Assembly (NCBI GenBank): GCA_902762385.1
Contig: CACWNQ010000019.1
Location: 7,115 to 71,114, forward strand
Direction: 5' to 3'
DNA length: 64,000 nt
Source of the DNA: an uncultured Bacteroidales bacterium
GTDB lineage: Bacteria; Bacteroidota; Bacteroidia; Bacteroidales; Muribaculaceae
Below the pieces are notes generated by a model, which saw nothing but the letters and a program-made list of their open reading frames with translations, was not told where the DNA came from and searched no databases. Each line of letters opens with the position of its first letter. Position 1 is the first letter of the stretch. Made by a program: the position numbers and the translations under genes. Shown here piece after piece: positions 17,337 to 33,946 of the stretch.

Positions 17337-18584
17337 TTATTGGTTCAAAATGTTCTCGGTAACTTGCAATGCAGTAAGCATGTCGACACCTGCGCCATCA
17401 AGCAGCTTTATGCTGTTGTGACCACTCAAGACCGAGCCTGCTGCATAGAGGTTGCTCATCACATTGCCACTGCGCTTGCAGTGCAGCTTGTGATCGGTTG
17501 CCACGCCCATTTCCATGTAGGGTTGAGCTTCGGTCACGTCAACAGTAGCCCAAGTCTTACGGTCGAGGCCCAAGTCGTCGACGTCGACACCCAAAGCAGG
17601 TTCATACACGTGGTTATAGTCAGCAACCAAGCCACGGCTCACAAACGAACCGGTGGCAAGTACAAAGTTGTCGGCTTCAAGCACTGTGCCGTCAAGCTTA
17701 GCGGTTTTCACGCCTTTAAGATTATTGCCGTCATATATTCCCTCTATCACCTGATCGCCAGTGAAGAAAGAGCCACCAAGTGCCATGAAACGCCTGCGAA
17801 GCTGCGACTGCATCCTCACGCCTGGCACCGATGGAGGCAACGTGTCGACATAGGATGCCGGCACATTGATAAGGCGAAGCAATTGCATAGCCTTTTCGTT
17901 GCTCGATATTCCCAGTACTGAAGGCAGCAGCACCATATCATACCCCTCACCTACAACACTGTTAACCTGGTCGGCAAACTTCACGAGCAGATCATTTTGC
18001 TCTATCACCTTAGCGATATTGGTCGAGCGCATCTCGGTAGGACTTTGGCGAAGCTGCTGGAATTCGGGCAGAATAACAGCCTTAACATCAACCTCCACAC
18101 CACGTTCACGCATTCCTGCAGCAAGGAACTTGGTAGGAAAATCTAGATAATTGACGATATTAACCAATGCCACTTTGCGCCATGGCATCTTATCGGGATC
18201 ATCAATGGCAGCCATCCCTTCAAGAGTGAGCCAGGTGGGCATCAAGGCACCTATCGGTGTAATGCGCCAGTGATTGGCGGTAGCATAGCCAGTGGTGGCG
18301 AGACCAGCTCTCTCGAGTATTTGTTTCGCCACACCAGCTAACCTTGACACGTCTTCTAGTTTTTTATAGGGATGTTTTTCATTAAGTTTTGCAATGGCAT
18401 CAAGGGGCTTGAACAAGTCGTTGCCACGCTCGTCGCTGCCCAGTAGGTCGAGTGACCCGCCCATAAAGTGCAGAGTGCTTTGTCCGGCACTCACAAGTGC
18501 CACATCCTTGCCGGCCTCGGCCAGCGCAATGCCTGCGGTGAGGCCCGAGAGGCCTCCACCTATTATTACTATATCAAATCTCAT
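17337..18584 (-). CDS. glpB: Anaerobic glycerol-3-phosphate dehydrogenase subunit B
   Basis: MRFDIVIIGGGLSGL FAD motif, GQSTLHF, LPPSVPGVR, LATGSFVSRGL. Start set at the internal ATG overlapping the glpA stop. Confidence 0.93.
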   Translation of the reverse strand: MRFDIVIIGGGLSGLTAGIALAEAGKDVALVSAGQSTLHFMGGSLDLLGSDERGNDLFKPLDAIAKLNEKHPYKKLEDVSRLAGVAKQILERAGLATTGYATANHWRITPIGALMPTWLTLEGMAAIDDPDKMPWRKVALVNIVNYLDFPTKFLAAGMRERGVEVDVKAVILPEFQQLRQSPTEMRSTNIAKVIEQNDLLVKFADQVNSVVGEGYDMVLLPSVLGISSNEKAMQLLRLINVPASYVDTLPPSVPGVRMQSQLRRRFMALGGSFFTGDQVIEGIYDGNNLKGVKTAKLDGTVLEADNFVLATGSFVSRGLVADYNHVYEPALGVDVDDLGLDRKTWATVDVTEAQPYMEMGVATDHKLHCKRSGNVMSNLYAAGSVLSGHNSIKLLDGAGVDMLTALQVTENILNQ

Positions 18585-20193
18585 AGCACTCCACTCTCCT
18601 TTCATTTGCAAGTCGGTCCACGCCGAGCACACCTTGATATATTCTAGCGGTAAGCTGAGCCTCGGCAAGGTTGTCGCCCCATGCCACTGGCTGCATGCCT
18701 TTCCACCGTTCGTTCATAAATCCAGCAAGGTCATTAATCGCCTTCTGTGTGTCATCACCACACATCACGCCAGCAGCACGGCAGGCACACAACTCGCCTT
18801 GACAGGTTCCCATGCCCACGCGCGTGCGCCTGCGCAGGTTTATAAGATTGTGTACATGCAGCTTGGTGACAGCATATCTTACCTCGCCAACACTCACACC
18901 CTCACACTCGCACACCAGGGCATCGCTAGTCACGTCACCACTATCAATGCTAGCATTAAGAGTGCCATGGCGTCCCTCAGCAGCTTTCTGAGCAAAGCTG
19001 TATTTCTTGGTCTCAACCTTTGGCTCGCTGCCGGGCAGTGGTGTGGTCGCTGTCTCGCACTGCTTTGCAATGCCCAGTTTCTCACATGCCAGGTTGGTCA
19101 CTTCCTCGGCCATAAGACGATAGGTCATCATCTTACCGCCAGTTATAGTGATAAAGCCGGCAAGGCCATCACGCTTCTCATGGTCGAGTGTAACGATGCC
19201 ACGGCTTATGCTTCGGCCTGTGGGGTCGTCATCACTGGCAATTAACGGACGAACTCCGGCATAGGCCCTAAGAATGCGTGTGCTGCCAAGCGACGGCGCC
19301 AACTTCATGCCCTCGGCAAGCAGCAGTTCCACCTCCTCGGGAGTAACGCGCATGTCATCGCACGTTTCAATGGGCACACGGTCACTTGTGGTACCTATCA
19401 CACACACGGCATCGTCGGGAACCAGAATGTCGGCATTGGCAGGCTTGCGGCAGCGGTTTATAACCATGTTATTAACACGATGACCGAAAATCAACAGCGA
19501 CCCCTTGGCGGGGAACATATTGATTTTAACACCTGCCATTTGTGCAACCAGCATGCCCCAAATGCCAGCGGCATTGATTGTCAACGTGGCATGCACGTTT
19601 CGCTCCTCACCGTTCAGGTTGTTGCGCAACTTAACGCCCACCACTCGGCCTTGCTCGATAATAATGTCAATTACCTCATGATAGACCAAAGCCTCAGCAC
19701 CATGCAGTTGTGCATCGAGAACATTGGCCATCGTCAGCCTGAAAGGGTCGACCGAAGCATCGGGCACTTTCACTGCACCTATCAAGTCGGGGTTCACAGC
19801 TGGTTCCATAATCTTCGCCAACTGTGGATCGATAACCTCGGCTCTAATGCCTGCCTCGGTACACTTCTGCACAAATGTGCTCTGGAAATTGATGTCATCC
19901 TCAGGAAGGGTGATGAAGAGGCCTTCGGTCTCCTCTACGCAATGTCGTGCTATCTTGCGCAAAGTCATATTCTCGGCAATGCACTCCACAGCGCTCTCAT
20001 GGTCGGTAACGGCATATCGAGCACCACTATGTAGCAGTCCATGATTACGGCCTGTTGCTCCTGTTGAGTAGTCATGACGCTCTACAAGCAGCACTTTCAG
20101 CCCCCTCATGGCGCAATCTCGGGCCGTTCCGGCACCAGTGATTCCGCCGCCTATCACAATCACATCATAGTGGTTGCTTAGTTCTTTTTCCAT
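18574..20193 (-). CDS. glpA: Anaerobic glycerol-3-phosphate dehydrogenase subunit A
   Basis: VIGGGITGAG, GATGRNHGLLHSGARYAV, GGKMMTYR, C-terminal BFD-like CECE...RTRVGMGTCQGELC. Confidence 0.96.
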   Translation of the reverse strand: MEKELSNHYDVIVIGGGITGAGTARDCAMRGLKVLLVERHDYSTGATGRNHGLLHSGARYAVTDHESAVECIAENMTLRKIARHCVEETEGLFITLPEDDINFQSTFVQKCTEAGIRAEVIDPQLAKIMEPAVNPDLIGAVKVPDASVDPFRLTMANVLDAQLHGAEALVYHEVIDIIIEQGRVVGVKLRNNLNGEERNVHATLTINAAGIWGMLVAQMAGVKINMFPAKGSLLIFGHRVNNMVINRCRKPANADILVPDDAVCVIGTTSDRVPIETCDDMRVTPEEVELLLAEGMKLAPSLGSTRILRAYAGVRPLIASDDDPTGRSISRGIVTLDHEKRDGLAGFITITGGKMMTYRLMAEEVTNLACEKLGIAKQCETATTPLPGSEPKVETKKYSFAQKAAEGRHGTLNASIDSGDVTSDALVCECEGVSVGEVRYAVTKLHVHNLINLRRRTRVGMGTCQGELCACRAAGVMCGDDTQKAINDLAGFMNERWKGMQPVAWGDNLAEAQLTARIYQGVLGVDRLANERRVECYEI

Positions 20194-20365
20194 TAATTCT
20201 AGATATTTGCCTTTTAACAGGTTTAGGTTTGCTCACCCACTACTAAGCAAATGGCTGGTTTTAAGGTGATTATAATTATCTTTTTTGAACATAAAACATT
20301 TGTAACTAATTTGCTTGAGAACTCGAAAAGTTTCTAAACGCAACCTTAAATGTTTTATTTCGCAA

Positions 20366-20396
20366 CAAAATTATGACAAGGTTTTTGAAAAACAAA
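20366..20396 (-). promoter_or_regulatory. Sigma-A promoter of the glp operon
   Basis: On the minus strand: TTTG (20393-20396), 19 nt spacer, TAATTTTG (20366-20373). Confidence 0.6.
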
Positions 20397-20516
20397 ATTT
20401 TTTGGAACTTTTTTCATAATAATATACAAAGAATTTTTCAAAATAGATAAATTTGCACATTTTCCCAACAATTTTTCGTCTAAAGAGTTTCGAAAAATTA
20501 AAAAAACATAAGAAAA

Positions 20517-20548
20517 TTTGTTTCTTTTGAAAGATTATCCTAATTTTG
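20517..20548 (+). promoter_or_regulatory. Sigma-A promoter of the DeoR regulator
   Basis: TTTG (20517-20520), 20 nt spacer, TAATTTTG (20541-20548). Confidence 0.6.
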
Positions 20549-20608
20549 CCACATCTCTTTTGAAACAAAAGGCTTTTTTTACACACATTATTAATATAGA
20601 AACATATT

Positions 20609-21373
20609 ATGCTCAAGAAGAAACGACAGGCACAAATCCTAGAAGTGCTGATGAAGGAAGAAGCTATCACCGTGAGCGAACTGGCTAGCCTGCTCGACGT
20701 GTCGTCGGTGACCATAAGGAAAGACCTCTCTGAACTCGAACAAGCCAACCGACTATACCGCAGTCACGGCAAAGCTATTCTCATTAACCCTTTCACTTTC
20801 AATCGTTCCATCAGCGAGAAAGAGAAACTCTTCCCCGAGCAGAAAGACGCCATAGGCCGAGAGGCGGCACGACTAATAGATCGTGACGACAGCATCATCA
20901 TTGCATCGGGCACCACAGTCCATGCTCTGGCACGAAACATCAAACCCATTCATCGACTCACTGTGGTGAGCGCATCGCTGCCAGTGTGCGAGATTCTGTC
21001 ACTTGACGAGTGTAACGACATAATACAACTTGGCGGCATGCTGCGACACAGCAGCCTTTCGGTAGTGGGTCAGTACAGCAAGCAGATTCTCGAGAATTGC
21101 TCGTTCTCCAAACTTTACATGGGTGTCGACGGCATCGACTTCGACTATGGTTTCACGACCACCGACATGCGAGAAGCCGAACTTAACCAACAGATGATGA
21201 GAGCCGCCCAAAAAGTGATAGTCCTCGCCGACGCTAGCAAGTTCGGCAAGCGAGGCTTTGCCAAGATTGGTGATATCGAGGACATCGACCTAATCATCAC
21301 CGACTCGGGAGTAAATCCCTCGGTCGTGAACCAAATAAGAGAACACGGCATCGATGTGATAATTGCTGAGTAG
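20609..21373 (+). CDS. DeoR/GlpR family transcriptional regulator
   Basis: HTH VSSVTIRKDL..L, RSHG, ASGTT, GVDGID, KFGKR; divergent from glpA. Confidence 0.92.
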   Translation: MLKKKRQAQILEVLMKEEAITVSELASLLDVSSVTIRKDLSELEQANRLYRSHGKAILINPFTFNRSISEKEKLFPEQKDAIGREAARLIDRDDSIIIASGTTVHALARNIKPIHRLTVVSASLPVCEILSLDECNDIIQLGGMLRHSSLSVVGQYSKQILENCSFSKLYMGVDGIDFDYGFTTTDMREAELNQQMMRAAQKVIVLADASKFGKRGFAKIGDIEDIDLIITDSGVNPSVVNQIREHGIDVIIAE

Positions 21374-21506
21374 AATCTTCTCGCTCCTCAACAAATCATT
21401 CAAGAACATAAAAAACTTAAAAACGGGCATTATTATTTGCCCGTTTTGTGTATTTTATGTAATTTTGGATTTTTCAAATAAGATTGTTCTACTAAATTCA
21501 TTTTTT

Positions 21507-22691
21507 ATGGAAAACGAAAACATCATCATACCTAGTGAATTTGCCGACATCTGCCCTATTCAGGACAAAGACTTCCACAACGAAATGTCGATCCTTGTAA
21601 ACGAACCCATGTTCAAGCAGATAGCGCAAATCGTGATGCCACAATACAACTACACTCAGTTCAAGATGCTGCTGCTGAGTTTGAACTCGAAATATGACTT
21701 GCAGACCAAGGTCATGAAACCTTTTGTCGACGGCTTGCTCAAAAAGACATCAACTGGTCTCACTGCAAGTGGACTCGAGAACCTAGAGAAGGATGTGCCT
21801 AACACTTTCATTACCAACCACCGCGATATCGTTCTTGATTCGGCACTGCTTAGCTACCTCATGCTTGAGAACGACATGGACACATGCGAAATCGCAATAG
21901 GCAACAATCTTCTCATCTACAACTGGATAACCAAACTAGTGCGCCTAAACAAGTGCTTCATCGTGAAGCGCAACTTAGGTCGCCTGCAAACCATGGCCGC
22001 AGCATTGCAACTTTCGTCCTACATGCATTTTGTGCTTAAGGAGAAGAAAGGCTCAATCTGGATTGCACAACGCGAGGGACGATGCAAAGACAGCAACGAC
22101 CGCACCCAGGAGAGCCTCATCAAGATGCTCACCTACGGCAACCGTGAGGTGCCATTCATCGAGAGTCTTAAAGAGCTCAACATTGCCCCCATTGCACTAA
22201 GCTACGAGTACGACCCCAACGACTGTCTCAAAGCACGCGAATATTTGCTTAAGAGCAAGGATCCCAACTTCAAGAAGACTCAGGAAGATGACCTCATCAG
22301 CATGAAGACAGGCATTGCCGAGTTCAAGGGACAAATCCATTACTCGTTTGCTCCATGCATCAACGACAAGCTTGAGCGCATTCCGGCCGATCTCGACCGA
22401 CTGCTCACTGTGCAGCGCATTTGCTCTATCATTGACCATACCATTCACGCCAACTATAAAATCTTCAAGACTAATTACATGGCGCATGATATGCTCTTCG
22501 ACAACAAGGACTTTGCCGAGCACTACACTACCGAGGAGGCAAACATTTTCAACGACTACCTCAACTCTCAGCTCGACAAGATTACCGATATTCCTGTCAA
22601 CGCTAGCGACCGCAACTACATGTTCAAGTACATGCTACAGATGTATAGCAACCCGCTGACCAACCAAATTGAGGCGATAGGAAAAGCTTAA
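21507..22691 (+). CDS. Glycerophospholipid acyltransferase (PlsC/GPAT-like)
   Basis: NHRDIVLD (HX4D) and WIAQREGR motifs. Start moved to ATG 21507; promoter-like TTTG-20nt-TAATTTTG at 21436-21467. Confidence 0.82.
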   Translation: MENENIIIPSEFADICPIQDKDFHNEMSILVNEPMFKQIAQIVMPQYNYTQFKMLLLSLNSKYDLQTKVMKPFVDGLLKKTSTGLTASGLENLEKDVPNTFITNHRDIVLDSALLSYLMLENDMDTCEIAIGNNLLIYNWITKLVRLNKCFIVKRNLGRLQTMAAALQLSSYMHFVLKEKKGSIWIAQREGRCKDSNDRTQESLIKMLTYGNREVPFIESLKELNIAPIALSYEYDPNDCLKAREYLLKSKDPNFKKTQEDDLISMKTGIAEFKGQIHYSFAPCINDKLERIPADLDRLLTVQRICSIIDHTIHANYKIFKTNYMAHDMLFDNKDFAEHYTTEEANIFNDYLNSQLDKITDIPVNASDRNYMFKYMLQMYSNPLTNQIEAIGKA

Positions 22692-22711
22692 TCTACCTGA
22701 CACATATTATA

Positions 22712-24388
22712 ATGAAGTATTTATTGTTTTCGATTGCTGCGGTAGCACTGAGCATGCCGCACAGTGATGCATGCACGAGCATTCTCGTGGGCAAGAAGGC
22801 GAGTGTCGACGGCTCGGTTATGTGTACCTATAATATTGACGCTTGGGGTGCTATGCACAGGATGCCGCGCTTCGAAGCCGGCACTCACAGCCCTGGCACC
22901 ATGCGTGAAATTTATGACCGTGATACAAGGGTATATCATGGCAAAATCCCCGAAGCACCAGTCACCTATCTTGTGAATGGACACATCAACGAATGGCAAG
23001 TATCAATTGGAGAAAGCACATTTGATGGGCGTGAAGAACTGATCGACACCACCGGTATCATCGACTATGGGTCGCTGATGCTCATAGGGTTGCAACGTGC
23101 GCGCACTGCACGTGAGGCAATGACAGTAATGACAAGTCTTGTTGAGAAATATGGCTTTTGCAGCTCAGGAGAATCTTTCACCGTGTGCGACCCTAATGAA
23201 GCATGGGTTCTTGAGATGATTGGTTGTGGCCCAGGCAGCAAGAGTGTGGTTTGGATTGCAGTGCGAGTGCCCGATAATGCTGTGATGGCGCATGCTAACC
23301 AGAGCCGCATACGTTGTGTAGACCTTACCGATACTGCCAACGTGAAGATATCAAAGAATTGCATCTCTTTCGCTCGCAAGCGAGGATATTTCAAGGGGAA
23401 AGACAGCGAGTTCAGCTTCTGCGACGCCTATAATCCACCCACCTTCGGTGGCCGTCGCCTAGGCGACACTCGCGTGTGGTCAATCTACCGACGTTTGACC
23501 ACAGGAATGGACAAATATATTCCTTATGTTGAAGGCATAAAGCCCATGAGCGAGGTAGAGCCTCTGCCCATGTGGATAATTCCCGACAAGCCACTGAGCG
23601 TTAACACTGTCATAGAGTGCCTGCGCGACCATCTTGAAGGCACCCCGTTTACCTTCAACGACCCCGATGACCCGGGAGCAGGAATTTACGACACTCCGTT
23701 CCGTCCTCAGCCACTGCGATACGACGACGAGGGAACCACCATGTTCAACGAGCGAGCAGTGTCGACGGCACACACGGCATTCACCTTTGTGAGCCAACTG
23801 CGTAGCTTCATGCCACGCGAGGTGGGTGGCGTGATTTGGTGGGGTAGCGACGACAGCGGCATGGTGGCCTACACACCAGTGTACTGCTGCTCTAGCCAAG
23901 TGCCAACTTGCTACAACGTAGCCGACGCATTCCACTTCAACGACCAGAGTGCTTATTGGGTGTGCAACTGGGTAAGCAATATGGTATACCCTCGCTGGAG
24001 TCTGCTTTATCCCGAGCTTGAACAAGTGCGCGACTCGTTGCAGGCAAGCTACTTTGACCACCAACATGAAATCGAAACGCGCGCCCTCAATCTTTTGAAG
24101 ACCGACCGAGACAGCGCCATCAATCTCCTAACCGACTATGGTGACCAAGTGGGCAATAGCATGGTAACTCGATGGCGTGACATGGCCTATCACATGATAG
24201 TGAAATACAACGACGGTGTAGTTCGCGAGGAAGACGAAAATGGTAACTACAAGCGCAATTCCAGTGGATATCGCCCACGTCTTGCACGACCCGGCATGAG
24301 CCCTAAAGCACGCCACCAAATTCATAAGTCAACTGGCACACGCTACGAAGTGCCGCCCACCGACAACCTCGACACCTCCTATATGTAA
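22712..24388 (+). CDS. Peptidase family C69 dipeptidase (Ntn hydrolase)
   Basis: Signal peptide then CTSILVGKKAS.DGS, GESF, ARTAREA, HANQSRI. Confidence 0.88.
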   Translation: MKYLLFSIAAVALSMPHSDACTSILVGKKASVDGSVMCTYNIDAWGAMHRMPRFEAGTHSPGTMREIYDRDTRVYHGKIPEAPVTYLVNGHINEWQVSIGESTFDGREELIDTTGIIDYGSLMLIGLQRARTAREAMTVMTSLVEKYGFCSSGESFTVCDPNEAWVLEMIGCGPGSKSVVWIAVRVPDNAVMAHANQSRIRCVDLTDTANVKISKNCISFARKRGYFKGKDSEFSFCDAYNPPTFGGRRLGDTRVWSIYRRLTTGMDKYIPYVEGIKPMSEVEPLPMWIIPDKPLSVNTVIECLRDHLEGTPFTFNDPDDPGAGIYDTPFRPQPLRYDDEGTTMFNERAVSTAHTAFTFVSQLRSFMPREVGGVIWWGSDDSGMVAYTPVYCCSSQVPTCYNVADAFHFNDQSAYWVCNWVSNMVYPRWSLLYPELEQVRDSLQASYFDHQHEIETRALNLLKTDRDSAINLLTDYGDQVGNSMVTRWRDMAYHMIVKYNDGVVREEDENGNYKRNSSGYRPRLARPGMSPKARHQIHKSTGTRYEVPPTDNLDTSYM

Positions 24389-24417
24389 TTAAGTGATTCT
24401 CTCAATATAACCCTAAT

Positions 24418-24948
24418 ATGGCAAATCCTAAGACTAAACAAGAATTGCTGACCGCAATGGCCGACGGCTATGCAAAACTTAATGAACAAATAAGCAAGAT
24501 GACGGTCGTCGAACTCGAAACACCATTTCAGTTTGCAAGCGACCCGAAGAAATGTGGTGCACGATGGATTTATGACCAGTGTCCACGTGACCTTCTCATT
24601 CATCTATATGAATGGCAAGTGCTGATGCGCGATTTCGTCAACAACATTCGCAAGGGACAGCAACGTGACTACTTGCCCGACGAATACCGCAAGAACTACC
24701 ACGAGATGGATCGCATGCTGGTGGAAAAACATCAGCAGACTTCATTCAGCCAGGCGCAACAATTGCTGAGCCAAACTCACGAAGAAATGATTCAACTTGC
24801 CGACAGTTTCACCGAAGAAGAACTGTTCGGCAAAGGCTACTACCGCTGCACCTACACCACAACCATGGCAGCCTATTTTGCCAGCGTCACCATCAGCCCC
24901 TACGGCCAAGCAACAAAACTCCTGAAAACCCACATCAAGAGCCTATAG
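24418..24948 (+). CDS. ClbS/DfsB family (DUF1706) four-helix bundle protein
   Basis: P.TKQELL, DLLIHLYEW, FTEEELF..GYY..T.TT..YF.S.T.S.Y pattern typical of the family. Confidence 0.7.
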   Translation: MANPKTKQELLTAMADGYAKLNEQISKMTVVELETPFQFASDPKKCGARWIYDQCPRDLLIHLYEWQVLMRDFVNNIRKGQQRDYLPDEYRKNYHEMDRMLVEKHQQTSFSQAQQLLSQTHEEMIQLADSFTEEELFGKGYYRCTYTTTMAAYFASVTISPYGQATKLLKTHIKSL

Positions 24949-24974
24949 TATTCCACACAATTATCATCAATTAT

Positions 24975-25005
24975 TTTGTCATAACAAATAAAAAATATAA
25001 CTTTG
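24975..25005 (+). promoter_or_regulatory. Sigma-A promoter driving the RT leader and RT
   Basis: TTTG (24975-24978), 19 nt spacer, TAACTTTG (24998-25005); same geometry as the tRNA-Asp promoter in this window. Implies a TSS near 25010. Confidence 0.75.
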
Positions 25006-25009
25006 CACC

Positions 25010-25250
25010 CTATAATATCATTTATGTGTTGCACTAAATAAAAGCAGCCTGGATGCTTACTAATCGCGTTTTGTTATTTGTCTATAACTATGGGCAAAGA
25101 CTGAATTAATTAATATTATTAAAACAATAATTGATTCGTCCTTCGGGAGGTCAGGACCCAAAACTAAAAAAGTATCTCCCATTCCTCCCCCGCATCGCCG
25201 GGGATGCATGTTAAACATCATGTACGCTTTGGTCCAGGTTGCTTTTTTCC
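25010..25250 (+). ncRNA. Putative structured RT-associated ncRNA / leader
   Basis: All three + frames are interrupted by stops. Closing stem aaaagcagcctgga (25040-25053) / tccaggttgctttt (25233-25246); internal hairpins at 25077-25098, 25132-25153 (cUUCGg loop) and 25188-25203. Confidence 0.65.
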
Positions 25251-25264
25251 ATTAATAACTAGCT

Positions 25265-26926
25265 ATGGAATCACTATTTGAGTTCGCCACGCCCGAACGG
25301 TTGACAAAGTTGCTCATTAAAGAGCGTGCAAAATGCCGGCGACGCAACAGAGACGAAGACAGGAGTAAAAAAAAGAACAAAAAAAAGAGCAAAAAAAAGA
25401 ATCGAAGGCGACTTAACCGTGATTGCGACATCGACAGTTTGTCAACACGCAAAGTGCTGAGTCGCATCATGCCGCCGCGTTACACATGGGTAAGGCCTTC
25501 GAAGCGAATTTATCTGAAAAACGGTGCTATGGACACCAGCAAGAATGCCGAGAAGGCGTTATGGCTGACCATCAAGCGCGACCGAGACAAACAAGGCAAG
25601 AAAGCCTCCATCTATCTACAGGAACTGGACGCTTTTATCAGTCGAATCAGGCAACGACTGATGATGCCACAACTCACATTTGAGACGCCACAACTCATGC
25701 CCATATACAAGAGCCATAAGCAGCTTCAAGATGGCACACAGGTCGTTACCTGCAGACCACTATCGGTTTACACCCGACTCGAAGATAAAATCATCGTGGC
25801 AATAACAAGTCGATACCTCACACGCTTTCTCGACAAGCATCTGCATCAAAACATTTTGTCCTATCGTAACTCGCGCACATTCTATGGGGAGCAACACCAC
25901 ACTACCGACTTTAACGACGGCATCAAATTAATTGAGGCATTTCGCGCAAAACAAGGACAAAACAACATTTATGTAGCCGATTGCGACATCAAGAAGTTCT
26001 ACGACACGATTCCTCACCACGTTGTGATTGAGAGCTTCAAACGCATTCTCGACAAGACAAGACTGGATTACGAGGGCAAGGAGCAAGTGATGAGGGTAAT
26101 CAGGGCCTATCTCAACAGCTATAACTTCTACACCAACGCTTGGCTAGAGGCAGAGTCTAACCCTATTGTTTTCTTCAAAGTGCGACGACGTATGCACGAC
26201 ACCAACCATCGAAACACTTATCAACTAGGTTGGGTCGACGATATCATGGCTCTGCCTGAAGAAGAACGTCGGCACAGAGGCGTACCACAAGGTGGGGCCT
26301 TGTCGCTCGTGGTGGCCAATGTCGTGCTAAACGATGTAGACCAGGTAATTGTAAACAAAATTGATGAAAACTGCTTATTCATTCGTTACTGCGACGATAT
26401 GATTCTGATGCACACCCACCGTGACAAATGCACACAATTAATGAAGGCCTATACTCAATCTCTCACCGACCATGGCTTATATTACCACGATTTTGAGTCT
26501 GTGACCAACTCTAAAGACCCAGCCAATCCCGAAATTACAAACAGTCATTTTTGGGAAATCAAGTCACACGCCACATTCCTGTGGGGAGATGGCGAGGGCA
26601 ATAGCAACCGTTACATTGGATTCCTGGGGTATGAGATGCAACGCGATGGCCGAATGCGACTACGAAAGGACAACATTAAGCGATTCAAGGAAAAAACAAA
26701 CCGATTGTTCTATGCGTTACAACGTTATCAAAACGACGACAAAAAAACCGATGAAGAAAAAGCCGAGCACAAAAAGAAAACCCTCAAAAACCTAATGGAA
26801 GGATTATGCTTCTACACGGCTTTCGACCAAGAACGCTTCCAAAGAGGCAAACAGTTTAAACTCTTGAAGAAACTCAGAGACAAACTAGAAGCACGACTCG
26901 CAAAACAACAACAGCAAAACCAATAA
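25265..26926 (+). CDS. Stand-alone reverse transcriptase, unknown-group/DRT-like
   Basis: RT motifs CRPL..Y..LEDKII, DCDIKKFYDTIPH, GVPQGGALS..ANVVL, IRYCDDM, GFLGY. No HNH/maturase tail, no DGR-type GNxxSQ, no retron NAxxH/VTG. Confidence 0.93.
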   Translation: MESLFEFATPERLTKLLIKERAKCRRRNRDEDRSKKKNKKKSKKKNRRRLNRDCDIDSLSTRKVLSRIMPPRYTWVRPSKRIYLKNGAMDTSKNAEKALWLTIKRDRDKQGKKASIYLQELDAFISRIRQRLMMPQLTFETPQLMPIYKSHKQLQDGTQVVTCRPLSVYTRLEDKIIVAITSRYLTRFLDKHLHQNILSYRNSRTFYGEQHHTTDFNDGIKLIEAFRAKQGQNNIYVADCDIKKFYDTIPHHVVIESFKRILDKTRLDYEGKEQVMRVIRAYLNSYNFYTNAWLEAESNPIVFFKVRRRMHDTNHRNTYQLGWVDDIMALPEEERRHRGVPQGGALSLVVANVVLNDVDQVIVNKIDENCLFIRYCDDMILMHTHRDKCTQLMKAYTQSLTDHGLYYHDFESVTNSKDPANPEITNSHFWEIKSHATFLWGDGEGNSNRYIGFLGYEMQRDGRMRLRKDNIKRFKEKTNRLFYALQRYQNDDKKTDEEKAEHKKKTLKNLMEGLCFYTAFDQERFQRGKQFKLLKKLRDKLEARLAKQQQQNQ

Positions 26927-26945
26927 TCAAATTAAACTTAAAACA

Positions 26946-26980
26946 AAAGCGCCGCAAATATATAATTTGCAGCGCCTTTT
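26946..26980. terminator. Bidirectional terminator between RT and tRNA-Leu
   Basis: aaaagcgccgcaaat / atttgcagcgcctttt imperfect stem with A/T flanks. Confidence 0.7.
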
Positions 26981-26994
26981 TGCTTTTAAGCCAG

Positions 26995-27078
26995 TACCCA
27001 GAGCCGGGGTCGAACCGGCACGGGTGTTACCCCACTGGTGTTTGAGACCAGCGCGTCTACCGATTCCGCCATCTGGGC
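26995..27078 (-). tRNA. tRNA-Leu(CAA)
   Basis: Reverse complement gcccagatggcggaatcggtagacgcg-ctggt-ctCAAac-accag, long variable arm, ggttcgacccc, tctgggta; CCA not encoded. Confidence 0.95.
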
Positions 27079-27318
27079 TCGAAAAGCGGTTGCAAAGGTA
27101 GCAAATAATTGAGAACCGCGAGTCTAGAATTGTGAATTATTTTTGATTTTGGGCGTTTTTTGACATTTTTTTAGATTTTACGGTCATTTTGTTCTCCTTA
27201 TTCCTTGATTTAATTGCCGGCCGAAAAATCTTTTTTTTCGTTTTTTGAGGGAAAAAGATGTGCAATTAGGCGAAAAGTAGTACATTTGTAAACTAAACAA
27301 GACTAAAATTATTTTAAT

Positions 27319-28512
27319 ATGACCCATTACGATTTTGACACAGTTATTGATAGGCACAATACCCATTGTAAAAGAACCGACAATCTAGTTTCTGAGTTTG
27401 GCAGCAAAGACTTGTTGCCACTTTGGATTGCCGATATGGATTTTGCCGTTTGCTCCGAGATAAGCGAGGCTTTGGTGAATCGTTTCCAAGGACATCCCAT
27501 CTATGGCTACACCAATACCTATGACGAATATTGGCAATCAATCATCGACTGGCAACGTCGTCGCAACGGCTTCGAGATTAGCCGCGAGGAAATGACGTTC
27601 ATGCCCGGCGGAATGCCTGCTTTGGGAATGATTCTCAACTTCTTCACCAAACCTGGCGACCGCGTGGTGCTGCAAGAACCTGTTTACTACGACTTCAAGG
27701 ATGTGATTGAAGGCAATCACCGTCTGGCTGTGCGAAACAATCTGATTCCCACTGGTGACCATTTCTACAAAATGGATCTAGACGATCTCGAGCGCGTGTT
27801 CATCCAGCAGAATCCACGCCTCATGGTTGTGTGCAACCCACAGAACCCCATAGGTATCGTGTGGAAAAAAGAGGAGCTCCAACAGGTTGCTGCTCTTGCC
27901 CGTCGTTACAATGTGATTCTGTTCAGCGATGAGGTGTTTGGCGACATCACCTTGTTTGGGCACAAGCACACCCCACTGGCTACCGTTAGCGAGGACGCTG
28001 CCGCAGTCACCATCACTTGTGGCTCTCCTGGCAAAACTTTCAATATCCCAGGCCTGAAGAGCACATGGCTAGTAATAAAGAATCCTGAACTGCGTCGTGA
28101 GTTCTATCGCTGGGTGGAAGTGAATGAGCTGTGCAACGCTAACATTCCTGCATTGCTCGCCACCGAGGTTGGTTATCGCAAATGCGAGCCATGGCTTGAG
28201 GCCTGCAAGAAATACATTGAGCAGAATGTGCTTTATGTGGCCGATTACTGCAAGGAAAACATCCCAGGCATCTATGCCATTAAGCCTCAGGCCTCGTTCC
28301 TGATGTGGCTTGATTGCCGCCGACTGGGCCTTGACCATAATGAACTGGTTCGTTTCTTTGCCGAAGAGGCTCACTTGGCGCTCAACAATGGCGAGATTTA
28401 TGGTGTTCCAGGCTACTGCCACATGCGACTCAACGTGGGCACACCACGAGCACTACTCGAAAAGGCGATGGGACAGCTACGCGACGCTGTCGACAGGCTC
28501 AAGAATCGCTGA
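27319..28512 (+). CDS. MalY/PatB family PLP-dependent C-S lyase
   Basis: LPLWIADMDF, VCNPQNPIG, SDEVF.D, SPGKTFNIPG, MRLNVG. Confidence 0.9.
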   Translation: MTHYDFDTVIDRHNTHCKRTDNLVSEFGSKDLLPLWIADMDFAVCSEISEALVNRFQGHPIYGYTNTYDEYWQSIIDWQRRRNGFEISREEMTFMPGGMPALGMILNFFTKPGDRVVLQEPVYYDFKDVIEGNHRLAVRNNLIPTGDHFYKMDLDDLERVFIQQNPRLMVVCNPQNPIGIVWKKEELQQVAALARRYNVILFSDEVFGDITLFGHKHTPLATVSEDAAAVTITCGSPGKTFNIPGLKSTWLVIKNPELRREFYRWVEVNELCNANIPALLATEVGYRKCEPWLEACKKYIEQNVLYVADYCKENIPGIYAIKPQASFLMWLDCRRLGLDHNELVRFFAEEAHLALNNGEIYGVPGYCHMRLNVGTPRALLEKAMGQLRDAVDRLKNR

Positions 28513-28542
28513 TGATGCGAGTGTGCTTTTTGGGTAATTGAC

Positions 28543-28580
28543 AAACAATATAGGCTGAACACAGTCAGCCTATATTGTTT
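28543..28580. terminator. Terminator after the MalY/PatB gene
   Basis: Perfect 16-bp stem aaacaatataggctga / tcagcctatattgttt. Confidence 0.8.
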
Positions 28581-28672
28581 TATTATAACGTAGGTAAATT
28601 GACTCAAAATTTGCAAAGATTATTTTTTTTAGCGAGATTTGCACAATATTAATCTTTAACCAATAATCAGCA

Positions 28673-30091
28673 ATGTCAACAAAATTCAAACACCTTGCCC
28701 TCGCATCAGTGCTGATGTGCCTAGCATCGGCAACTAATGCGACTGCACAAGACTCTAATGCCGTGGGCAACAATGAGATTATCCTACATGCTTGGTCATG
28801 GTCGTTCAACACGATATCCCAGCACTTGCAAGAAATTAAAGATGCTGGATACACCATCGTGCAAACCTCACCCATCAATGAGTGCTACGTGGGCGACAAC
28901 GGCGGACGACAACTCTTTGGCAACGGAAAGTGGTATTATCACTATCAGCCTACCGACTGGACTATTGGCAACTACCAGTTAGGAAGTCGCGATGAGTTCA
29001 AGAGCATGTGTGACAAGGCCAATAGCTTAGGGCTGAGAGTGATTGTCGATGTGCTTCCCAACCATACCGTGATTGACCGCACTAAAATAAATGCTCGACT
29101 CGACAGCGCAGTGAACGGACGTGAGAATCTGTTTCATGCTAACGGACTCTGGCCCATAAATGACTATAGCGACCGATATCAATGCACTACTGGAGAGATG
29201 GGAACACTGCCCGACGTGAATACCGAGAACCCCGACTTCCAGTACTACTACATGCAATATGTAAATGATGTGCTGGCATGTGGTGCCCGAGGCTTTCGCT
29301 ACGACACAGCCAAGCACATTGGACTGCCCGACGAGCCACGCGACCCAAAATCGCCACAAAACGACTTTTGGGATGTTGCCATGGGCCGCAAGGCCGTGAA
29401 AGGGTTGCGACTCTCTATCCCTCGCGACCAACTTTTCATTTACGGTGAAGTTCTTCAAGACCGCAATGTCCCCGAGCAAGGCTATGCCGAGTATATGGAT
29501 CTCACTGCAAGCGGCTATGGTTGGGTGTTGCGCAACGTTCTCAACAAGCATAATGCCAAGGAGGGTGACCTGCTCAGCTGGCATCACAGTGTTGACCCCA
29601 CCCACTTGATTACTTGGGTTGAATCGCACGACACTTATTGTAATGCCCATGAATCGGCAGGCATGAGCGACGAACTCGTGCGCCTCGGTTGGGTCTTCCT
29701 TACCGCACGCCAGTATGGCACTCCTCTATTCTACTCACGCCCCCACGGGAGCACTCGTGAGAACTACTGGGGCGACAATGAGATTGGCAAAGTGGGTAAT
29801 GATGAGTTCAAGCACCCCTTAGTGCGCGCCATCAACGAGTTCCGCCACATCAACTCAGCTCAGCCTGAGAACATCATTATCAGTGATGATGGCAAGCAAA
29901 TCATTGTAGAGCGTGGCAAGAAAGCTGCTGTCGTTATCAACCTCGACGAGCAGGCAGCTACAATAGCTATCCCTGTTACTATCGACAACGGCAAATATCG
30001 CGACGCAGTAACAAAGCAACAACTCCAAGTTAAGAAGGGTGTGCTCAATGCCACTCTCGAGCCCATGACAGCTTACATACTGAGCAAGTGA
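28673..30091 (+). CDS. Secreted alpha-amylase (GH13)
   Basis: Signal peptide; ILHAWSWSF, VQTSP, DVLPNH, GFRYDTAKH, YGEVLQ, WVESHDTY. Confidence 0.9.
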   Translation: MSTKFKHLALASVLMCLASATNATAQDSNAVGNNEIILHAWSWSFNTISQHLQEIKDAGYTIVQTSPINECYVGDNGGRQLFGNGKWYYHYQPTDWTIGNYQLGSRDEFKSMCDKANSLGLRVIVDVLPNHTVIDRTKINARLDSAVNGRENLFHANGLWPINDYSDRYQCTTGEMGTLPDVNTENPDFQYYYMQYVNDVLACGARGFRYDTAKHIGLPDEPRDPKSPQNDFWDVAMGRKAVKGLRLSIPRDQLFIYGEVLQDRNVPEQGYAEYMDLTASGYGWVLRNVLNKHNAKEGDLLSWHHSVDPTHLITWVESHDTYCNAHESAGMSDELVRLGWVFLTARQYGTPLFYSRPHGSTRENYWGDNEIGKVGNDEFKHPLVRAINEFRHINSAQPENIIISDDGKQIIVERGKKAAVVINLDEQAATIAIPVTIDNGKYRDAVTKQQLQVKKGVLNATLEPMTAYILSK

Positions 30092-30172
30092 GAAGGCGGA
30101 ATCACACATTGGACGATAATATGAGTTTTTGTATTTTTGCAGACAATAATTCTCAAAAACCGACAAAACATT

Positions 30173-30625
30173 ATGCGAATAGTAATTCAACGAGTGCTTG
30201 AGGCATCGGTTAGCATTAGTGGCGAGCTTCACAGCGCGATTAAAGGCGGCTACATGGTGCTGGTGGGCGTACGCGAAGGCGACACCGAGGACGATGCCAA
30301 GTGGCTGGCAATGAAGACGGTTAACCTGCGAGTCTTTGACGACGAGAACGGGGTTATGAACCGAAATATCCTCGATGCTGACGGAGAGGTACTGGCTGTG
30401 AGCCAGTTCACCCTCAATGCCAGCACCAAGAAAGGCAACCGCCCGAGCTACATCCACGCTGCAGGCCACGACCTCGCTGTGCCCCTTTACGAACTCTACT
30501 GCAAAGAAGTAGAACTGTTAATGAAAAAAGAGGTGAAGCGCGGCGTGTTTGGCGCCAACATGCAGGTGTCGCTCATCAACGACGGCCCCGTCACCATCAT
30601 CATCGACTCCAAGCTACACGAATAA
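30173..30625 (+). CDS. dtd: D-aminoacyl-tRNA deacylase
   Basis: MRIVIQRV, VSQFTL, GNRPSY, FGANMQVSLINDGPVT. Start moved to ATG 30173. Confidence 0.95.
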   Translation: MRIVIQRVLEASVSISGELHSAIKGGYMVLVGVREGDTEDDAKWLAMKTVNLRVFDDENGVMNRNILDADGEVLAVSQFTLNASTKKGNRPSYIHAAGHDLAVPLYELYCKEVELLMKKEVKRGVFGANMQVSLINDGPVTIIIDSKLHE

Positions 30626-30687
30626 CCACCTCCACGGCTTTTCAGGCAATTATCAATAACACACCTTGTTTTCTTTTATTAAATACA

Positions 30688-31164
30688 ATGGCAAAGAACA
30701 CACTAATATTGATAGTGATTGCTTTGATGCTTGCTTGTTGCAATAGAGCCAAGAATGCCATAAATGCTACAGCAGAAAAGGCCACCGATAATTTGCGCTT
30801 GGGATTCTATTCTGATCCTGGCGCATGGGATTATTACAGGATGCCATTGATTAAGCCATGGCAGGTGGAGGCAATCGACGACACCACAATATGGTATCTA
30901 TGCAAGAAAGACGAAACAACCACCACAAGCAATGTTGTGCAAGTGGGAGTTACAGATTCCATAATATACTATAGCTGTAAAGACAACTGTTACGGAGCCA
31001 TCGACACCAGGTGCGACTCGGTTTACGAACTAAGCGACGAAGCCAGCCTTCGCAACACGCTGAAAAGGCTTGGCATTGAGCACCCCAAGATGATGCGGAT
31101 TGATAGTGCATACAATCAATTTGCTCATAAAAAGATAACATTGTTCACTCCACCCAGCAAATGA
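30688..31164 (+). CDS. Hypothetical lipoprotein
   Basis: Lipobox-like LMLACC after a hydrophobic leader; no recognisable domain. Confidence 0.6.
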   Translation: MAKNTLILIVIALMLACCNRAKNAINATAEKATDNLRLGFYSDPGAWDYYRMPLIKPWQVEAIDDTTIWYLCKKDETTTTSNVVQVGVTDSIIYYSCKDNCYGAIDTRCDSVYELSDEASLRNTLKRLGIEHPKMMRIDSAYNQFAHKKITLFTPPSK

Positions 31165-31300
31165 TTGCTGTTCCAGTGATGCGTGAATTGCTTCTGCGTC
31201 AATCCTTTTTCTTTAGTTTTTTCAATCCATCCCAAAACTATTATGATTGAACCATACTATAAAAGAAAATAAAGCCCACCTTTTTAGTGAGCTATATTTT

Positions 31301-31918
31301 TTAATTTTGTTCGTTCATTCTATCTTCAATTTCCTCTAAAGTTTGCTGTATCTCATTGTATTCTTCTACCTCACAGCTAAACAAAACTTCTTTGAAATCT
31401 TTGTCTATGATAAACACTGTATTTCCAATGAGAGTATTTCCAGCATTATTGTCTGCTCTGTAATTATGTGTTGCAAGATAACCAATGAAATTCCGTTTTT
31501 GTTTTAAAATATTTACAACTTCTTCGAATTTCTCTTTCCCTTTCTCAGTAAGTTTCTCTTTTTTTGAATTAGCCTTGTCATACTCTTCTTTAGCTTCATT
31601 GTATTCGTTTCTTCCAAACGAATCCATATAAGGTCCACTCCAAATTGACATTGAAGATTTTGCCTGTTTCATATCATGGTTTAAGCCTTCGATTTCAGCT
31701 CCAATGTCTACTAATTCCATCATTTTTTCAAATAAAACTGGGTCATCATAAGGAGTAAAGGCACTATCCAATTTTGTTTCAATTGGATTATAAGAATCAG
31801 GTTTAAATAGTGATTTTCTCAATTCTGCTTTAATAAGCTCATTTGCTTTCTCCTCTGGAGATTTGCCACATGAACTAAAAAATAAAACAAATATAAAAAT
31901 ATGCAACAAGTTCCTCAT
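31301..31918 (-). CDS. Hypothetical lipoprotein with coiled-coil segment (AT-rich gene)
   Basis: LFFSSC lipobox; YRADNNAGN..IG..VF pattern at the C-terminus. Confidence 0.7.
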   Translation of the reverse strand: MRNLLHIFIFVLFFSSCGKSPEEKANELIKAELRKSLFKPDSYNPIETKLDSAFTPYDDPVLFEKMMELVDIGAEIEGLNHDMKQAKSSMSIWSGPYMDSFGRNEYNEAKEEYDKANSKKEKLTEKGKEKFEEVVNILKQKRNFIGYLATHNYRADNNAGNTLIGNTVFIIDKDFKEVLFSCEVEEYNEIQQTLEEIEDRMNEQN

Positions 31919-32326
31919 GCAATTAATACTTTTCTGTTAAATGATATGCAAAGATACTACAATTTTTGCTATATCAATGATTATGTTTGAAATATTTCGA
32001 TAGCGCCAAGTTAATCAGTCCTGCAAACTGTTATCCTAAATTCTCCTCATAGTATTCCTTGTTTGGCTTTGTTTTTATTTGTTGCCTATGTTTAATGAAA
32101 TTTTGAGTGAAGCGCGCATCGAAAAATTCTTTTTTGAAGAATTACTTCCGATGAAGTGGTTTTCTCATTTTTTATATTTATATTTGCAATGTCATTGATG
32201 ATTTTCTTTTCTTTAATTTGCAGCACTGAGATAAGTGAAAATCAAACGTGACAACATTCAATTCAAGATTAACTTTTATAGACCTTTTCCATTGTTAAAC
32301 CAAAGTGCTGCGGTATTTAGATTATT

Positions 32327-33517
32327 ATGAAGAAATTATTACTCTTTAGTGTTGTGGCGTTGATAGCATTTTTCGCAGGCGCCGAAACTGTCCACAAGAT
32401 GAGCAAGCCAGCAGGCAAGTCCCGTGTGGAGATCATTACCGAGCAACCCGAGGGCAACGTTGTGTCCTACACCCGTTCGGGTGAGTATATGACCGCAAGC
32501 CTTTATGGATATGACGCAACCCAGCAAACAGGACAGATGAAAATCACCTATGCCAACGACGGCAAGACCGTATATCTTCTCGATCCTCTTGCCTACGGCG
32601 AGGGAACCGGAGTGTGGGTACAAGGCGAGTTGAGCGACGACGGCGCCACCATCACAGTGCCTCTAGGTCAATATGTGGCCTACAACGAAGAGTACAACTA
32701 CGGTCTGATTTTGGCATGGGGAGAGTCCACCTTGATTGACCTTGGTGATGATTTTTATTATGTTTGGTTTGTGCCCGATGAGGGTGTTGAGGCTGTGACC
32801 TATGCTGTCGATGCCGCAAGCGGCGTTATTACCTTAGTGGGTTCCGAAGGTGATGCCTCGGCAGCTTATCCCGACAACCTATTGGCCCACGGACTCGCTG
32901 GAATTTGGAGCGATGACGAGTCGATAGCAACCATTGAGTGGGGAACAACCTTTACTCCCCTTGGAGATGCTGTTGCCGCTGTTCCTGCCAATCCCGAAGC
33001 TTTGGACTTCTTTGACTGCGGCGATGAGAGTGGCTACACACGCTTTGACTTCAACATCAACCTGCAAGATGTAGACGGAAATGAACTGCATGCCGATAAG
33101 GTGACTTACAGCATCTATACCGACGATGACCAGCTGTTCACCTTCGATGCAGCGACCTATGGCGCAGCCAATGGCTTCGATGAGGACATGACCGAGATTC
33201 CTTATGGTTTCAGTGGCAGTGATTTCTATCTGCGCCGTGTTTACTTCTACCGCACCAATAATGGCGACAACCCACTGCTCAACTGGCGCATAGGTATTCA
33301 GACGCACTACACCGTCGATGGAATAAGCAACTCGTCAGACATTGTCTATCTCGAGGTAATCCCAAGCGCTATCGAGAGTGTGAATACTGGAAAGACAATT
33401 GTTGCCGAGCGTTACTACAACATGGCCGGTCAGGAGGTTGCCAATCCTAATGGTATCGCCATCAAGGTTACTACCTATAGCGATGGAACAAACTCAACAA
33501 CAAAAGTTGTTAAGTAA
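32327..33517 (+). CDS. Secreted protein of unknown function with T9SS-type C-terminal domain
   Basis: Signal peptide; C-terminus AIESVNTGKTIVAERYYNMAGQEV...GIAIKVTTYSDG...KVVK. Confidence 0.75.
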   Translation: MKKLLLFSVVALIAFFAGAETVHKMSKPAGKSRVEIITEQPEGNVVSYTRSGEYMTASLYGYDATQQTGQMKITYANDGKTVYLLDPLAYGEGTGVWVQGELSDDGATITVPLGQYVAYNEEYNYGLILAWGESTLIDLGDDFYYVWFVPDEGVEAVTYAVDAASGVITLVGSEGDASAAYPDNLLAHGLAGIWSDDESIATIEWGTTFTPLGDAVAAVPANPEALDFFDCGDESGYTRFDFNINLQDVDGNELHADKVTYSIYTDDDQLFTFDAATYGAANGFDEDMTEIPYGFSGSDFYLRRVYFYRTNNGDNPLLNWRIGIQTHYTVDGISNSSDIVYLEVIPSAIESVNTGKTIVAERYYNMAGQEVANPNGIAIKVTTYSDGTNSTTKVVK

Positions 33518-33527
33518 AGAGTAAAAG

Positions 33528-33584
33528 TCTGATTTCTGATTTCTGATCTCTGATTTATGACATCTGATAACTGACATTTCTGAT
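33528..33584 (+). repeat. Degenerate heptamer array (tctgatN)
   Basis: tctgatt tctgatt tctgatc tctgatt tatgaca tctgata actgaca. Confidence 0.7.
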
Positions 33585-33933: not shown

Positions 33934-33946
33934 GAACTAATAAATT

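Follow-up and report, generated by a model that had tools for sequence, protein, structure and literature searches.

A covarying leader RNA tied to a UG39-like reverse transcriptase clade of Bacteroidales suggests a two-part RNA-protein module

The locus described here lies within a 64,000-nt stretch of contig CACWNQ010000019.1 from an uncultured Bacteroidales bacterium of the Muribaculaceae (the window; all coordinates count from its first letter). It consists of a gene for a reverse transcriptase (RT) of 553 aa (25265..26926, + strand; YCDD at residues 375-378), which by profile scores is UG39-like and belongs to the Class 2 UG/Abi RTs, and of a structured noncoding RNA (ncRNA) of about 210 nt encoded immediately upstream (25038..25248, + strand). 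Reading of the sequence places a Bacteroidetes-type promoter in front of both (24975..25005, + strand), with a -33 TTTG (24975-24978), a 19-nt spacer, and a -7 TAACTTTG (24998-25005); promoters of this type are outside the coverage of the sigma-70 consensus scan. TAnnTTTG is found at the equivalent position in every full-length homolog leader except one. A preliminary description of this DNA, made from the letters alone, had reported the same promoter, at about 255 nt before the start codon; it lies 260 nt before the RT ATG at 25265. The same description had noted stops in all three sense frames of the leader, of which there are 5-6 per frame, and a terminator directly after the 553-aa RT. The latter corresponds to a GC-rich hairpin with T-runs on both sides (26945..26979), able to terminate in both directions, that is situated between the RT gene and a convergent tRNA-Leu(CAA) gene (26994-27078, - strand). 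On the + strand the terminator stem is followed by TTTTTGCTTTT, and the terminator prediction itself had listed the hairpin on the - strand.

The leader is a real RNA family with an exclusive link to this RT clade. The window copy folds at -71 kcal/mol (z = -4.57), which none of 200 shuffles equalled. A plain MAFFT alignment of 42 leaders gave no predicted pairs in RNAalifold, the stems being misaligned, and was replaced by a covariance model, R1, built from 14 leaders with hand-checked structure. R1 scores the window leader at 64.5 bits (E-value about 1e-13) and finds the element immediately before the RT gene in 45 distinct loci, with RTs 46-75% identical to that of the window. Homologs in this identity range are plentiful in rumen and gut Bacteroidales metagenomes, including metagenome-assembled genomes (MAGs) of Muribaculaceae and 'Prevotellaceae', and their upstream regions share the promoter motif, a covarying closing stem, a U-run, and the block GGAUGCAUG. 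In the R1 alignment 92% of cells form standard pairs and 37 of the 49 pairs carry compensatory (two-sided) changes. The covariation score is 0.353, compared with 0.155 for column shuffles (none of 500 attained the observed value) and no more than 0.088 when the structures are slid by 1-3 columns, values to be read with the fact that fitting the alignment to the nested helices works in favour of those helices; the pseudoknot described below was left out of the model. The search for conserved stems in homolog leaders that the preliminary description had proposed as a check is thus strongly positive. Among 61 related genomes R1 matches only two, once in each, and these are precisely the ones that carry this RT. 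This specificity led to the rejection of a generic Bacteroidales leader RNA as an explanation. No Rfam family matched the leader even at E <= 1, and neither Rfam 15 nor the searchable literature appears to describe the RNA partner. R1 likewise gave no match in the other UG39-like clades searched. In one sheep-rumen Bacteroidaceae MAG (L025:6001-6450) the ncRNA scores 137.5 bits beside an RT frame of only 167 aa, and this locus may be a decaying copy or an assembly problem.

The RNA is closed by the stem P1 (25040-25053 AAAAGCAGCCTGGA / 25233-25246 TCCAGGTTGCTTTT, + strand), a 14-bp inverted repeat with one G-U that the preliminary description had already recognised. It is part of the minimum-free-energy fold, and all 12 of its family pairs vary, 11 with changes on both sides. 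Within it, P1b (GCG 25066-25068 / CGC 25225-25227, + strand) is paired in 95.5% of cells and shows two-sided changes in two of three pairs. The P2 hairpin (UUUGUCUAU-AACU-AUGGGCAAA, 25077..25098, + strand), again present in the minimum-free-energy fold, is also 95.5% paired; at columns 52/97, 23 sequences have a GC pair and 18 an AU pair. Between P2 and P3 lies a linker (25100-25141 in the window) that is A/U-rich, can form a long hairpin of its own (GACUGAAUUAAUUAAU...AUUGAUUCGUC), and is unconserved, being A-rich and variable in relatives.

Homolog alignments place a shortened P3 hairpin at 25138..25157 (+ strand), with GUCCU (25138-25142) pairing with AGGAC (25153-25157) around the loop UCGGGAGGUC. 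Most relatives have a longer P3 with an inner P3b hairpin, both of which covary in the family; P3b and the inner part of P3 have been lost in the window, and in its nearest relative, L007, a larger deletion of the P3 region has removed the 5' strand of the pseudoknot as well. The cUUCGg hairpin proposed in the preliminary description is one possible local fold that finds no support among homologs, and the GUCCU/AGGAC hairpin, whose loop holds GGGAGGU, is favoured over it. This GGGAGGU (25145..25151, + strand) is the 5' strand of a predicted pseudoknot with AUCUCCC (25174..25180, + strand), which the model aligns to the AUCUCC of relatives. A pseudoknot had been suspected earlier with CCUCCC (25184-25189) as the 3' partner; the kind of interaction was right, while homology favours AUCUCCC and leaves CCUCCC as the alternative. 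The family form, GGAGAU:AUCUCC, is paired in 93.9% of cells with two-sided changes in five of six pairs, though it is absent from the model, and occurs in the variants GAGAC/GUCUC, GGUAAU/AUUACC, and UGAGAU/AUCUCA.

The last internal helix, P4 (CCCCG-CAUCGC-CGGGG, 25188..25203, + strand; CCCCG 25188-25192 / CGGGG 25199-25203), is a candidate template-boundary element. It is paired in 98.3% of cells and all four of its pairs show two-sided changes; the length of its loop is very variable among relatives. At its 3' edge begins a near-invariant block, GGAUGCAUGUUAAACAU (25202..25218, + strand), which holds AUGCAUG (25204-25210) and CAU-GUUAAA-CAU and is the candidate template. The 9-nt stretch GGAUGCAUG within it is invariant in 42 aligned leaders and lies about 65-75 nt before the start codon; in the two most divergent of the 45 R1 matches the block starts CUGCAUG and UGCAUG. 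A P5 hairpin inside the block was considered and rejected: four of its pairs never vary, and the other two are broken where they vary. Since these variants break pairs with no compensation, it is the sequence of the block that is conserved. Immediately behind the 3' strand of P1, and 17 nt before the ATG, the sequence reads as a U-tract (25243..25248, + strand), which is likely the ncRNA's 3' end or an attenuator at which transcription would terminate. The same layout of closing stem and U-run is seen in all clades with a leader.

The preliminary description could not assign the RT to a described family, and this no longer holds. The best PADLOC match is RT_UG39 (E-value 2.2e-102, 342 bits), followed at a distance by Drt2 (78 bits), Drt9 (64.7 bits), and RT_UG17 (64.3 bits). 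RVT_1 is the only Pfam model to pass its threshold, in keeping with the Class 2 trait of an RT without any additional known domain. UG39, formerly UG28b, is a named Class 2 UG/Abi group that was split off from UG28 and is associated with a VirE and PriCT-2 protein, protein cluster 64; no ncRNA was described for it (Mestre et al. 2022, PMC9226505). A full-text literature search on UG39 returned no other relevant paper and no described function or ncRNA. Canonical UG39 RTs in other Bacteroidia score 560-670 bits over positions 2-540 of the 541 in the profile, whereas the window RT scores 332-342 bits over positions 4-448 only; about 60 relatives of the window RT score 315-360 bits, most of them covering only about positions 4-450. 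Three of the four canonical UG39 loci examined adjoin a BT4734-like_N (VirE) gene (L091:343-1365, L092:347-1333, and L093:272-1273), matching cluster 64, and PriCT-2 was also scored in the partner genes of L091 and L092. Such a BT4734-like_N/PriCT-2 partner was not found near the window RT, nor among the neighbours that recur beside its relatives. Because the score is about half the canonical one and the partner gene is missing, the window RT is called UG39-like and not canonical UG39; on profile scores it is a divergent or sister subgroup of UG39.

Other assignments were rejected. The NCBIfam Drt2 model (NF041746) gives 72.7 bits against a cut-off of 390, and the Drt3a model is also far below its cut-off. 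For membership in DRT9/UG28, the Drt9 hidden Markov model (HMM) scores 64.7 bits against 342 for UG39, and the identity to DRT9 structures is 16-17%; for DRT10/UG17, the RT_UG17 score is accompanied by no adjacent SLATT gene or other partner open reading frame (ORF). A group II intron RT or maturase is disfavoured by TIGR04416 (64 bits, cut-off 300) and by an Rfam scan of the window, which returned two tRNAs only and no intron RNA. The retron_St85 model scores 30 bits (cut-off 235), with no PADLOC retron model among the 25 best matches listed. For a diversity-generating retroelement (DGR), no direct repeats of at least 40 nt that could form a template repeat/variable repeat pair were found in the 16 kb from 18000 to 34000, and no small accessory ORF of the avd type adjoins the RT in the window. 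A CRISPR-associated RT was rejected on profile scores and missing hallmarks, and neither Cas1, nor an integrase, nor an effector ORF is encoded beside the RT in the window. The Rfam scan, repeat search, and neighbour check bear out the earlier statement that intron RNA, avd or template repeat, Cas1, integrase, and partner ORF are absent, and together with the profile scores they leave the RT outside the group II intron, DGR, and retron families.

An AlphaFold2 model of the RT (pLDDT 88.7, pTM 0.86) has as its closest solved structure the DRT9 RT (9vma_A; E-value 1.6e-12, TM-score about 0.45, 16% identity), followed by a group II intron RT and then DRT2. A PDB sequence search with the RT gave generic RT-domain matches only. 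The YCDD motif is conserved, and throughout the wider UG39 family the catalytic residues D241, D377, and D378 do not vary; Y517 and Y531 are kept within the clade of the window but not across the wider family. The N-terminal region contains a Lys/Arg-rich low-complexity insert, KKKNKKKSKKKNRRR (residues 27-51, window 25343-25417), that is shorter in most relatives and is the sole low-confidence part of the model (pLDDT < 50).

Upstream of the module in the window are encoded a DeoR regulator, an acyltransferase, a C69 peptidase, and a DUF1706 protein, and downstream the tRNA-Leu, an aminotransferase, and an alpha-amylase. Within the genus, 2 of 37 genomes have the module; the UG39 profile matches 5 of 401 sampled genomes of the class and 2 of 401 of the order, with the genome of the window among them. 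At 50% identity, about 211 clusters make up the wider family in a set of 1.84 billion representative proteins. This patchy distribution marks the module as an accessory element. No carriage by phages or viruses was found in IMG/VR viral contigs or GenBank phage records, and a single distant match was the only one on a plasmid. Genes of defence or mobile-element type are frequently found near relatives and encode UvrD helicases, SLFN/AlbA_2 proteins, N6 and C5 DNA methyltransferases, AAA ATPases, microbial PARG, ADP-ribosylglycohydrolase, Nudix, HD, and WYL-WCX proteins, small sigma factors, and SprT-like proteins. Among these recurrent neighbours no cluster is common to more than 10 of 62 loci and no primase is found among the annotated ones, and since no single neighbour exceeds this number, the RT and its RNA look self-sufficient.

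All three related Muribaculaceae loci have a tRNA-Leu gene in the vicinity of the RT module (window 26994-27078 on the - strand, L007:5271-5393, and L008:3623-3797). The gene order differs among them: DUF1706-RT-tRNA in the window, RT followed by tRNA in L007, and tRNA-C69 peptidase-RT in L008, where the DUF1706 gene is absent and the tRNA is about 2.2 kb upstream of the RT, past the C69 peptidase gene. These differences suggest local rearrangement, or repeated insertion, near tRNA-Leu. For an empty-site comparison within the genus, the closest relative with the DUF1706 gene (G015) was used; it has neither the RT nor the RNA, its downstream sequence is unrelated, and a clean insertion boundary could not be defined from it.

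Except in the subclade of L017 and L019 discussed below, UG39-like clades further removed from the window RT, with RT identities of about 25-40%, also have leaders of their own, arranged as promoter, long closing stem, internal hairpins, and U-run. In the loci L015-L024, L071, L072, and L097-L106 these leaders measure about 180-290 nt and combine the closing stem and U-run with conserved blocks such as GGCCAUCGAUUAAGAACG and UUCGAUCGCCUUAAGGUCC, and several UG39-like clades have a UUAA core downstream of the palindromic motif discussed below. These leaders, too, appear undescribed. In the canonical UG39 locus L093 the RT is preceded by a leader with the closing stem GGGAGUAGC...GGCUACUCCC and a U-run, so that canonical UG39 probably has its own ncRNA.

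Given this architecture and the relatedness of the RT, a scaffold and template mode like that of the defence-associated reverse transcriptases (DRTs) is, by inference, the best explanation of the locus. We therefore favour, as probable though far from certain, a two-part Class 2 UG/Abi module of the DRT kind in which an RNA-protein complex carries out ncRNA-templated, probably protein-primed, DNA synthesis, probably in defence; a self-contained unit of ncRNA and stand-alone RT is also what the preliminary description had envisaged. By analogy with characterised relatives, the Bacteroidetes promoter would drive an RNA of about 210 nt, closed by a long stem, containing four internal helices plus a pseudoknot, and ending at the U-tract, and read-through from the same promoter would yield the mRNA of the 553-aa UG39-like RT. 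The RT would most likely bind the leader RNA as a scaffold and copy the short invariant stretch beside P4 over and over into DNA, as DRT9 and DRT10 do, with priming probably by one of its own hydroxyl side chains. Accumulation of the DNA product during phage infection would then lead to growth stop or cell death (abortive infection). In support of templating, the only invariant stretch of the RNA comes after a stable hairpin, the location of the template in DRT10 and telomerase RNAs (PMC12632851).

Several observations weigh against this interpretation. The window copy sits among housekeeping genes, outside any defence island. No effector gene is present at the window locus, which would leave the DNA product itself as the source of any toxicity. 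In the subclade of L017 and L019 there is no upstream leader, a WYL-WCX gene abutting the RT start with a 3-nt gap (L017:4431-5414, L019:4738-5667); an upstream RNA is thus not universal in the wider family, and this subclade either has no ncRNA or has its RNA elsewhere. Y517 is invariant within the clade of the window only, and no priming residue was identified. Finally, the defence prediction for UG39 was judged inconclusive by Mestre et al. 2022 (PMC9226505).

The position of the candidate template allows a more specific, and more tentative, proposal. AUGCAUG directly abuts P4 and is made up of the self-complementary unit AUGC in 1.75 copies. In every UG39-like clade that has an upstream leader, a self-complementary, tandemly periodic motif occurs 0-2 nt after a hairpin: AUCGAU in the L015 clade (8 loci), CGAUCG in the L071 clade (7 loci), AUCGAUCG in L101, CGAUCGAU in L103, AAUCGAUU in L106, UAGCUAG in L104, and CUAGAUCUAG in L105, besides GCAUGCAUG in L025 and UGCAUG in L058 and L069 of the window clade. 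The repeat unit in the other clades is AUCG in five, UAGC in one, and CUAGAU in one, in 1.5-2.25 copies. Palindromic hexamers are 4-periodic by chance about 1 time in 4, and here every version is periodic; given palindromy, the periodicity has a p-value of roughly 0.01-0.02, to be read with the shared ancestry of the clades and the post hoc recognition of the motifs. The palindrome centre is displaced by 2 nt between clades (AUCGAU and CGAUCG), as a repeat would allow. The pattern is suggestive of a hairpin-bounded template that spans about 1.5-2.25 repeat units, following the logic of telomerase and DRT10. With AUGCAUG as template and P4 as boundary, repeated copying and realignment would give (GCAT)n, which could pair with itself, and a single RT would thereby make DNA that folds into a duplex; the duplex repeat product of DRT3 requires two polymerases. 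That UG39-like RTs are telomerase-like enzymes writing self-complementary tandem-repeat DNA, (GCAT)n in the case of the window, is an idea we regard as possible and worth naming, with the balance tilted against it.

The near-invariant block also offers a serious alternative template. AUG-C-AUG occurs right after P4 in 43 of the 45 ncRNAs, the other two having UG-CA-UG, and CAU-(5-7 nt)-CAU occurs at the same place in 45 of 45; for both it should be considered that 3-nt repeats are expected by chance in about 20 nt, and the support for such a template lies in the position and periodicity kept across clades. The arms of the latter are longer (CAUGU...CAUGU) in the window and its two nearest relatives, and copying of CAU-GUUAAA-CAU would yield (TTTAACATG)n. 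This 9-nt A-B-A' motif (CAU-GUUAAA-CAU) was tried as a rule across clades and rejected in that role: L071 and L097 (GUC...GUC) and L072 (GCC...GCC) fit it, but L099 and L100 (GCC...GUC) break it.

An explanation that competes with the template assignment only is that the palindrome after P4 is a site of RNA-RNA dimerisation (kissing) that assembles RT-ncRNA oligomers. There is a precedent in DRT9, whose hexamers are held by RNA-RNA contacts including the self-contact SL4:SL4 (PMC12483538), and the motif stays self-complementary in each clade despite its changed sequence. Self-complementarity, however, needs no tandem periodicity, and all versions comprise 1.5-2.25 copies of a 4-nt or 6-nt unit; moreover, the 2-nt shift of the palindrome centre is that of a repeat, and the constant position within 0-2 nt after a hairpin resembles a template boundary. 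A kissing site is a serious alternative, though one we consider unlikely.

As to the function of the module as a whole, it might act in DNA metabolism or on behalf of a mobile element, for instance in the priming or maintenance of an integrative element, and not immunity. Canonical UG39 pairs with PrimPol-type BT4734-like_N and PriCT-2 genes (PMC9226505), many homologs are found among genes of the mobile-element type (sigma factors, AAA ATPases, and SprT-like proteins), the RT adjoins tRNA-Leu in the window and L007 and is within about 2.2 kb of it in L008, and the UG39 defence score, as noted, is inconclusive. Neither a PrimPol partner, nor an integrase, nor terminal repeats were found for the window-type subgroup, however, and the RT is carried by none of the phage records or IMG/VR viral contigs; in addition, every Class 2 RT-ncRNA system tested so far is antiviral (PMC12632851, PMC13174585, PMC12483538). 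A role outside immunity therefore seems quite unlikely.

Equally, the leader could be a cis-acting 5' untranslated region only, an attenuator or translational regulator, with the RT working without a template or on another substrate. The closing stem and U-run 17 nt before the ATG do resemble a terminator or attenuator, and some UG/Abi RTs use no RNA template. A 210-nt fold of five helices with a covarying pseudoknot and a 9-nt invariant stretch in a near-invariant 17-nt block nevertheless far exceeds what an attenuator needs; the characterised Class 2 relatives DRT2, DRT3a, DRT9, and DRT10 all template on their own ncRNA (PMC12632851, PMC13174585), and the modelled RT fold appears closest to that of the RNA-templated DRT9. 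A purely regulatory leader is accordingly very doubtful in our view. Hardly credible is a DRT2-like mode, in which rolling-circle copying of a long ncRNA stretch would give a complementary DNA concatemer with a never-ending ORF (neo): the two-part architecture is identical, Drt2 is the second-best HMM (78 bits), and the window leader has a 189-nt stop-free stretch on the - strand, but in the 45 ncRNAs the longest open stretch does not exceed that of shuffled sequences (in the median, a fraction of 0.37 of the shuffles match or surpass it), neither the strand nor the position of this stretch is conserved, P3/P3b and the P4 loop change in length by steps not divisible by three, and the NCBIfam Drt2 score falls far short of its cut-off.

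The Class 2 defence RTs studied each write DNA differently: DRT2 a gene, DRT9 poly-dA, DRT10 telomere-like repeats, and DRT3 a dinucleotide-repeat duplex. UG39 is among the groups still uncharacterised, and no RNA partner was previously known for it. The present analysis adds a covariation-supported RNA partner for a large UG39-like subgroup of rumen and gut Bacteroidales (at least 45 distinct loci), a module that appears to need no partner protein, and a candidate template in the form of one short motif, from which a definite product sequence to search for follows. If the product is indeed a self-complementary repeat, it would represent a new route to duplex DNA by a single polymerase and a further bacterial parallel to telomerase.

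Comparison with the characterised systems places the module as follows. Canonical UG39 shares with it a stand-alone RT of about 550 aa from Bacteroidota with no other known domain and, in L093, a stem-closed leader with a U-run; it differs in the BT4734-like_N and PriCT-2 gene that adjoins the canonical RT and that window-type loci lack. DRT2 and DRT9 have the same order of promoter, structured RNA closed by a long stem, and RT, the ncRNA holding the template (PMC9226505, PMC12483538). In DRT2 (UG2 RT and ncRNA), rolling-circle copying of the ncRNA produces the neo gene; it resembles the window module in its two-part architecture and is its second-best HMM and third-best structural match, but the window-family ncRNA has no conserved open frame and the Drt2 score is below cut-off. 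DRT3a copies ACACAC into poly(dTdG) (PMC13174585). DRT9 (UG28 RT and ncRNA; PMC12483538, PMC12489045) is likewise a two-part system of upstream structured ncRNA and RT and provides the closest solved structure, whereas the sequence and fold of its RNA differ and the RT identity is only about 16%. Its conserved U-tract templates protein-primed poly-dA (PMC12483538). The priming residues of DRT9 are conserved tyrosines of the C-terminal tail. No poly-U template tract of this type is conserved in the 45 aligned ncRNAs, the GCUUU at the P1b/P1 junction varying to GCGAU, GCUAU, and ACGAU, and poly-dA synthesis is therefore not predicted for the window clade. DRT10 (UG17 RT, ncRNA, and SLATT; PMC12632851, bioRxiv 10.64898/2026.04.29.721553) has its SLATT gene between ncRNA and RT, and an A-B-A' motif just 3' of a stem-loop gives protein-primed tandem repeats in a telomerase-like manner (PMC12632851). 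The window module shares with it a Class 2 RT and a candidate template of about 1.5 or more repeats 3' of a stem-loop; it differs in having no SLATT or other partner, in a predicted repeat unit that is self-complementary, and in a template block that is sequence-invariant within its clade, whereas the template loops of DRT10 are poorly conserved.

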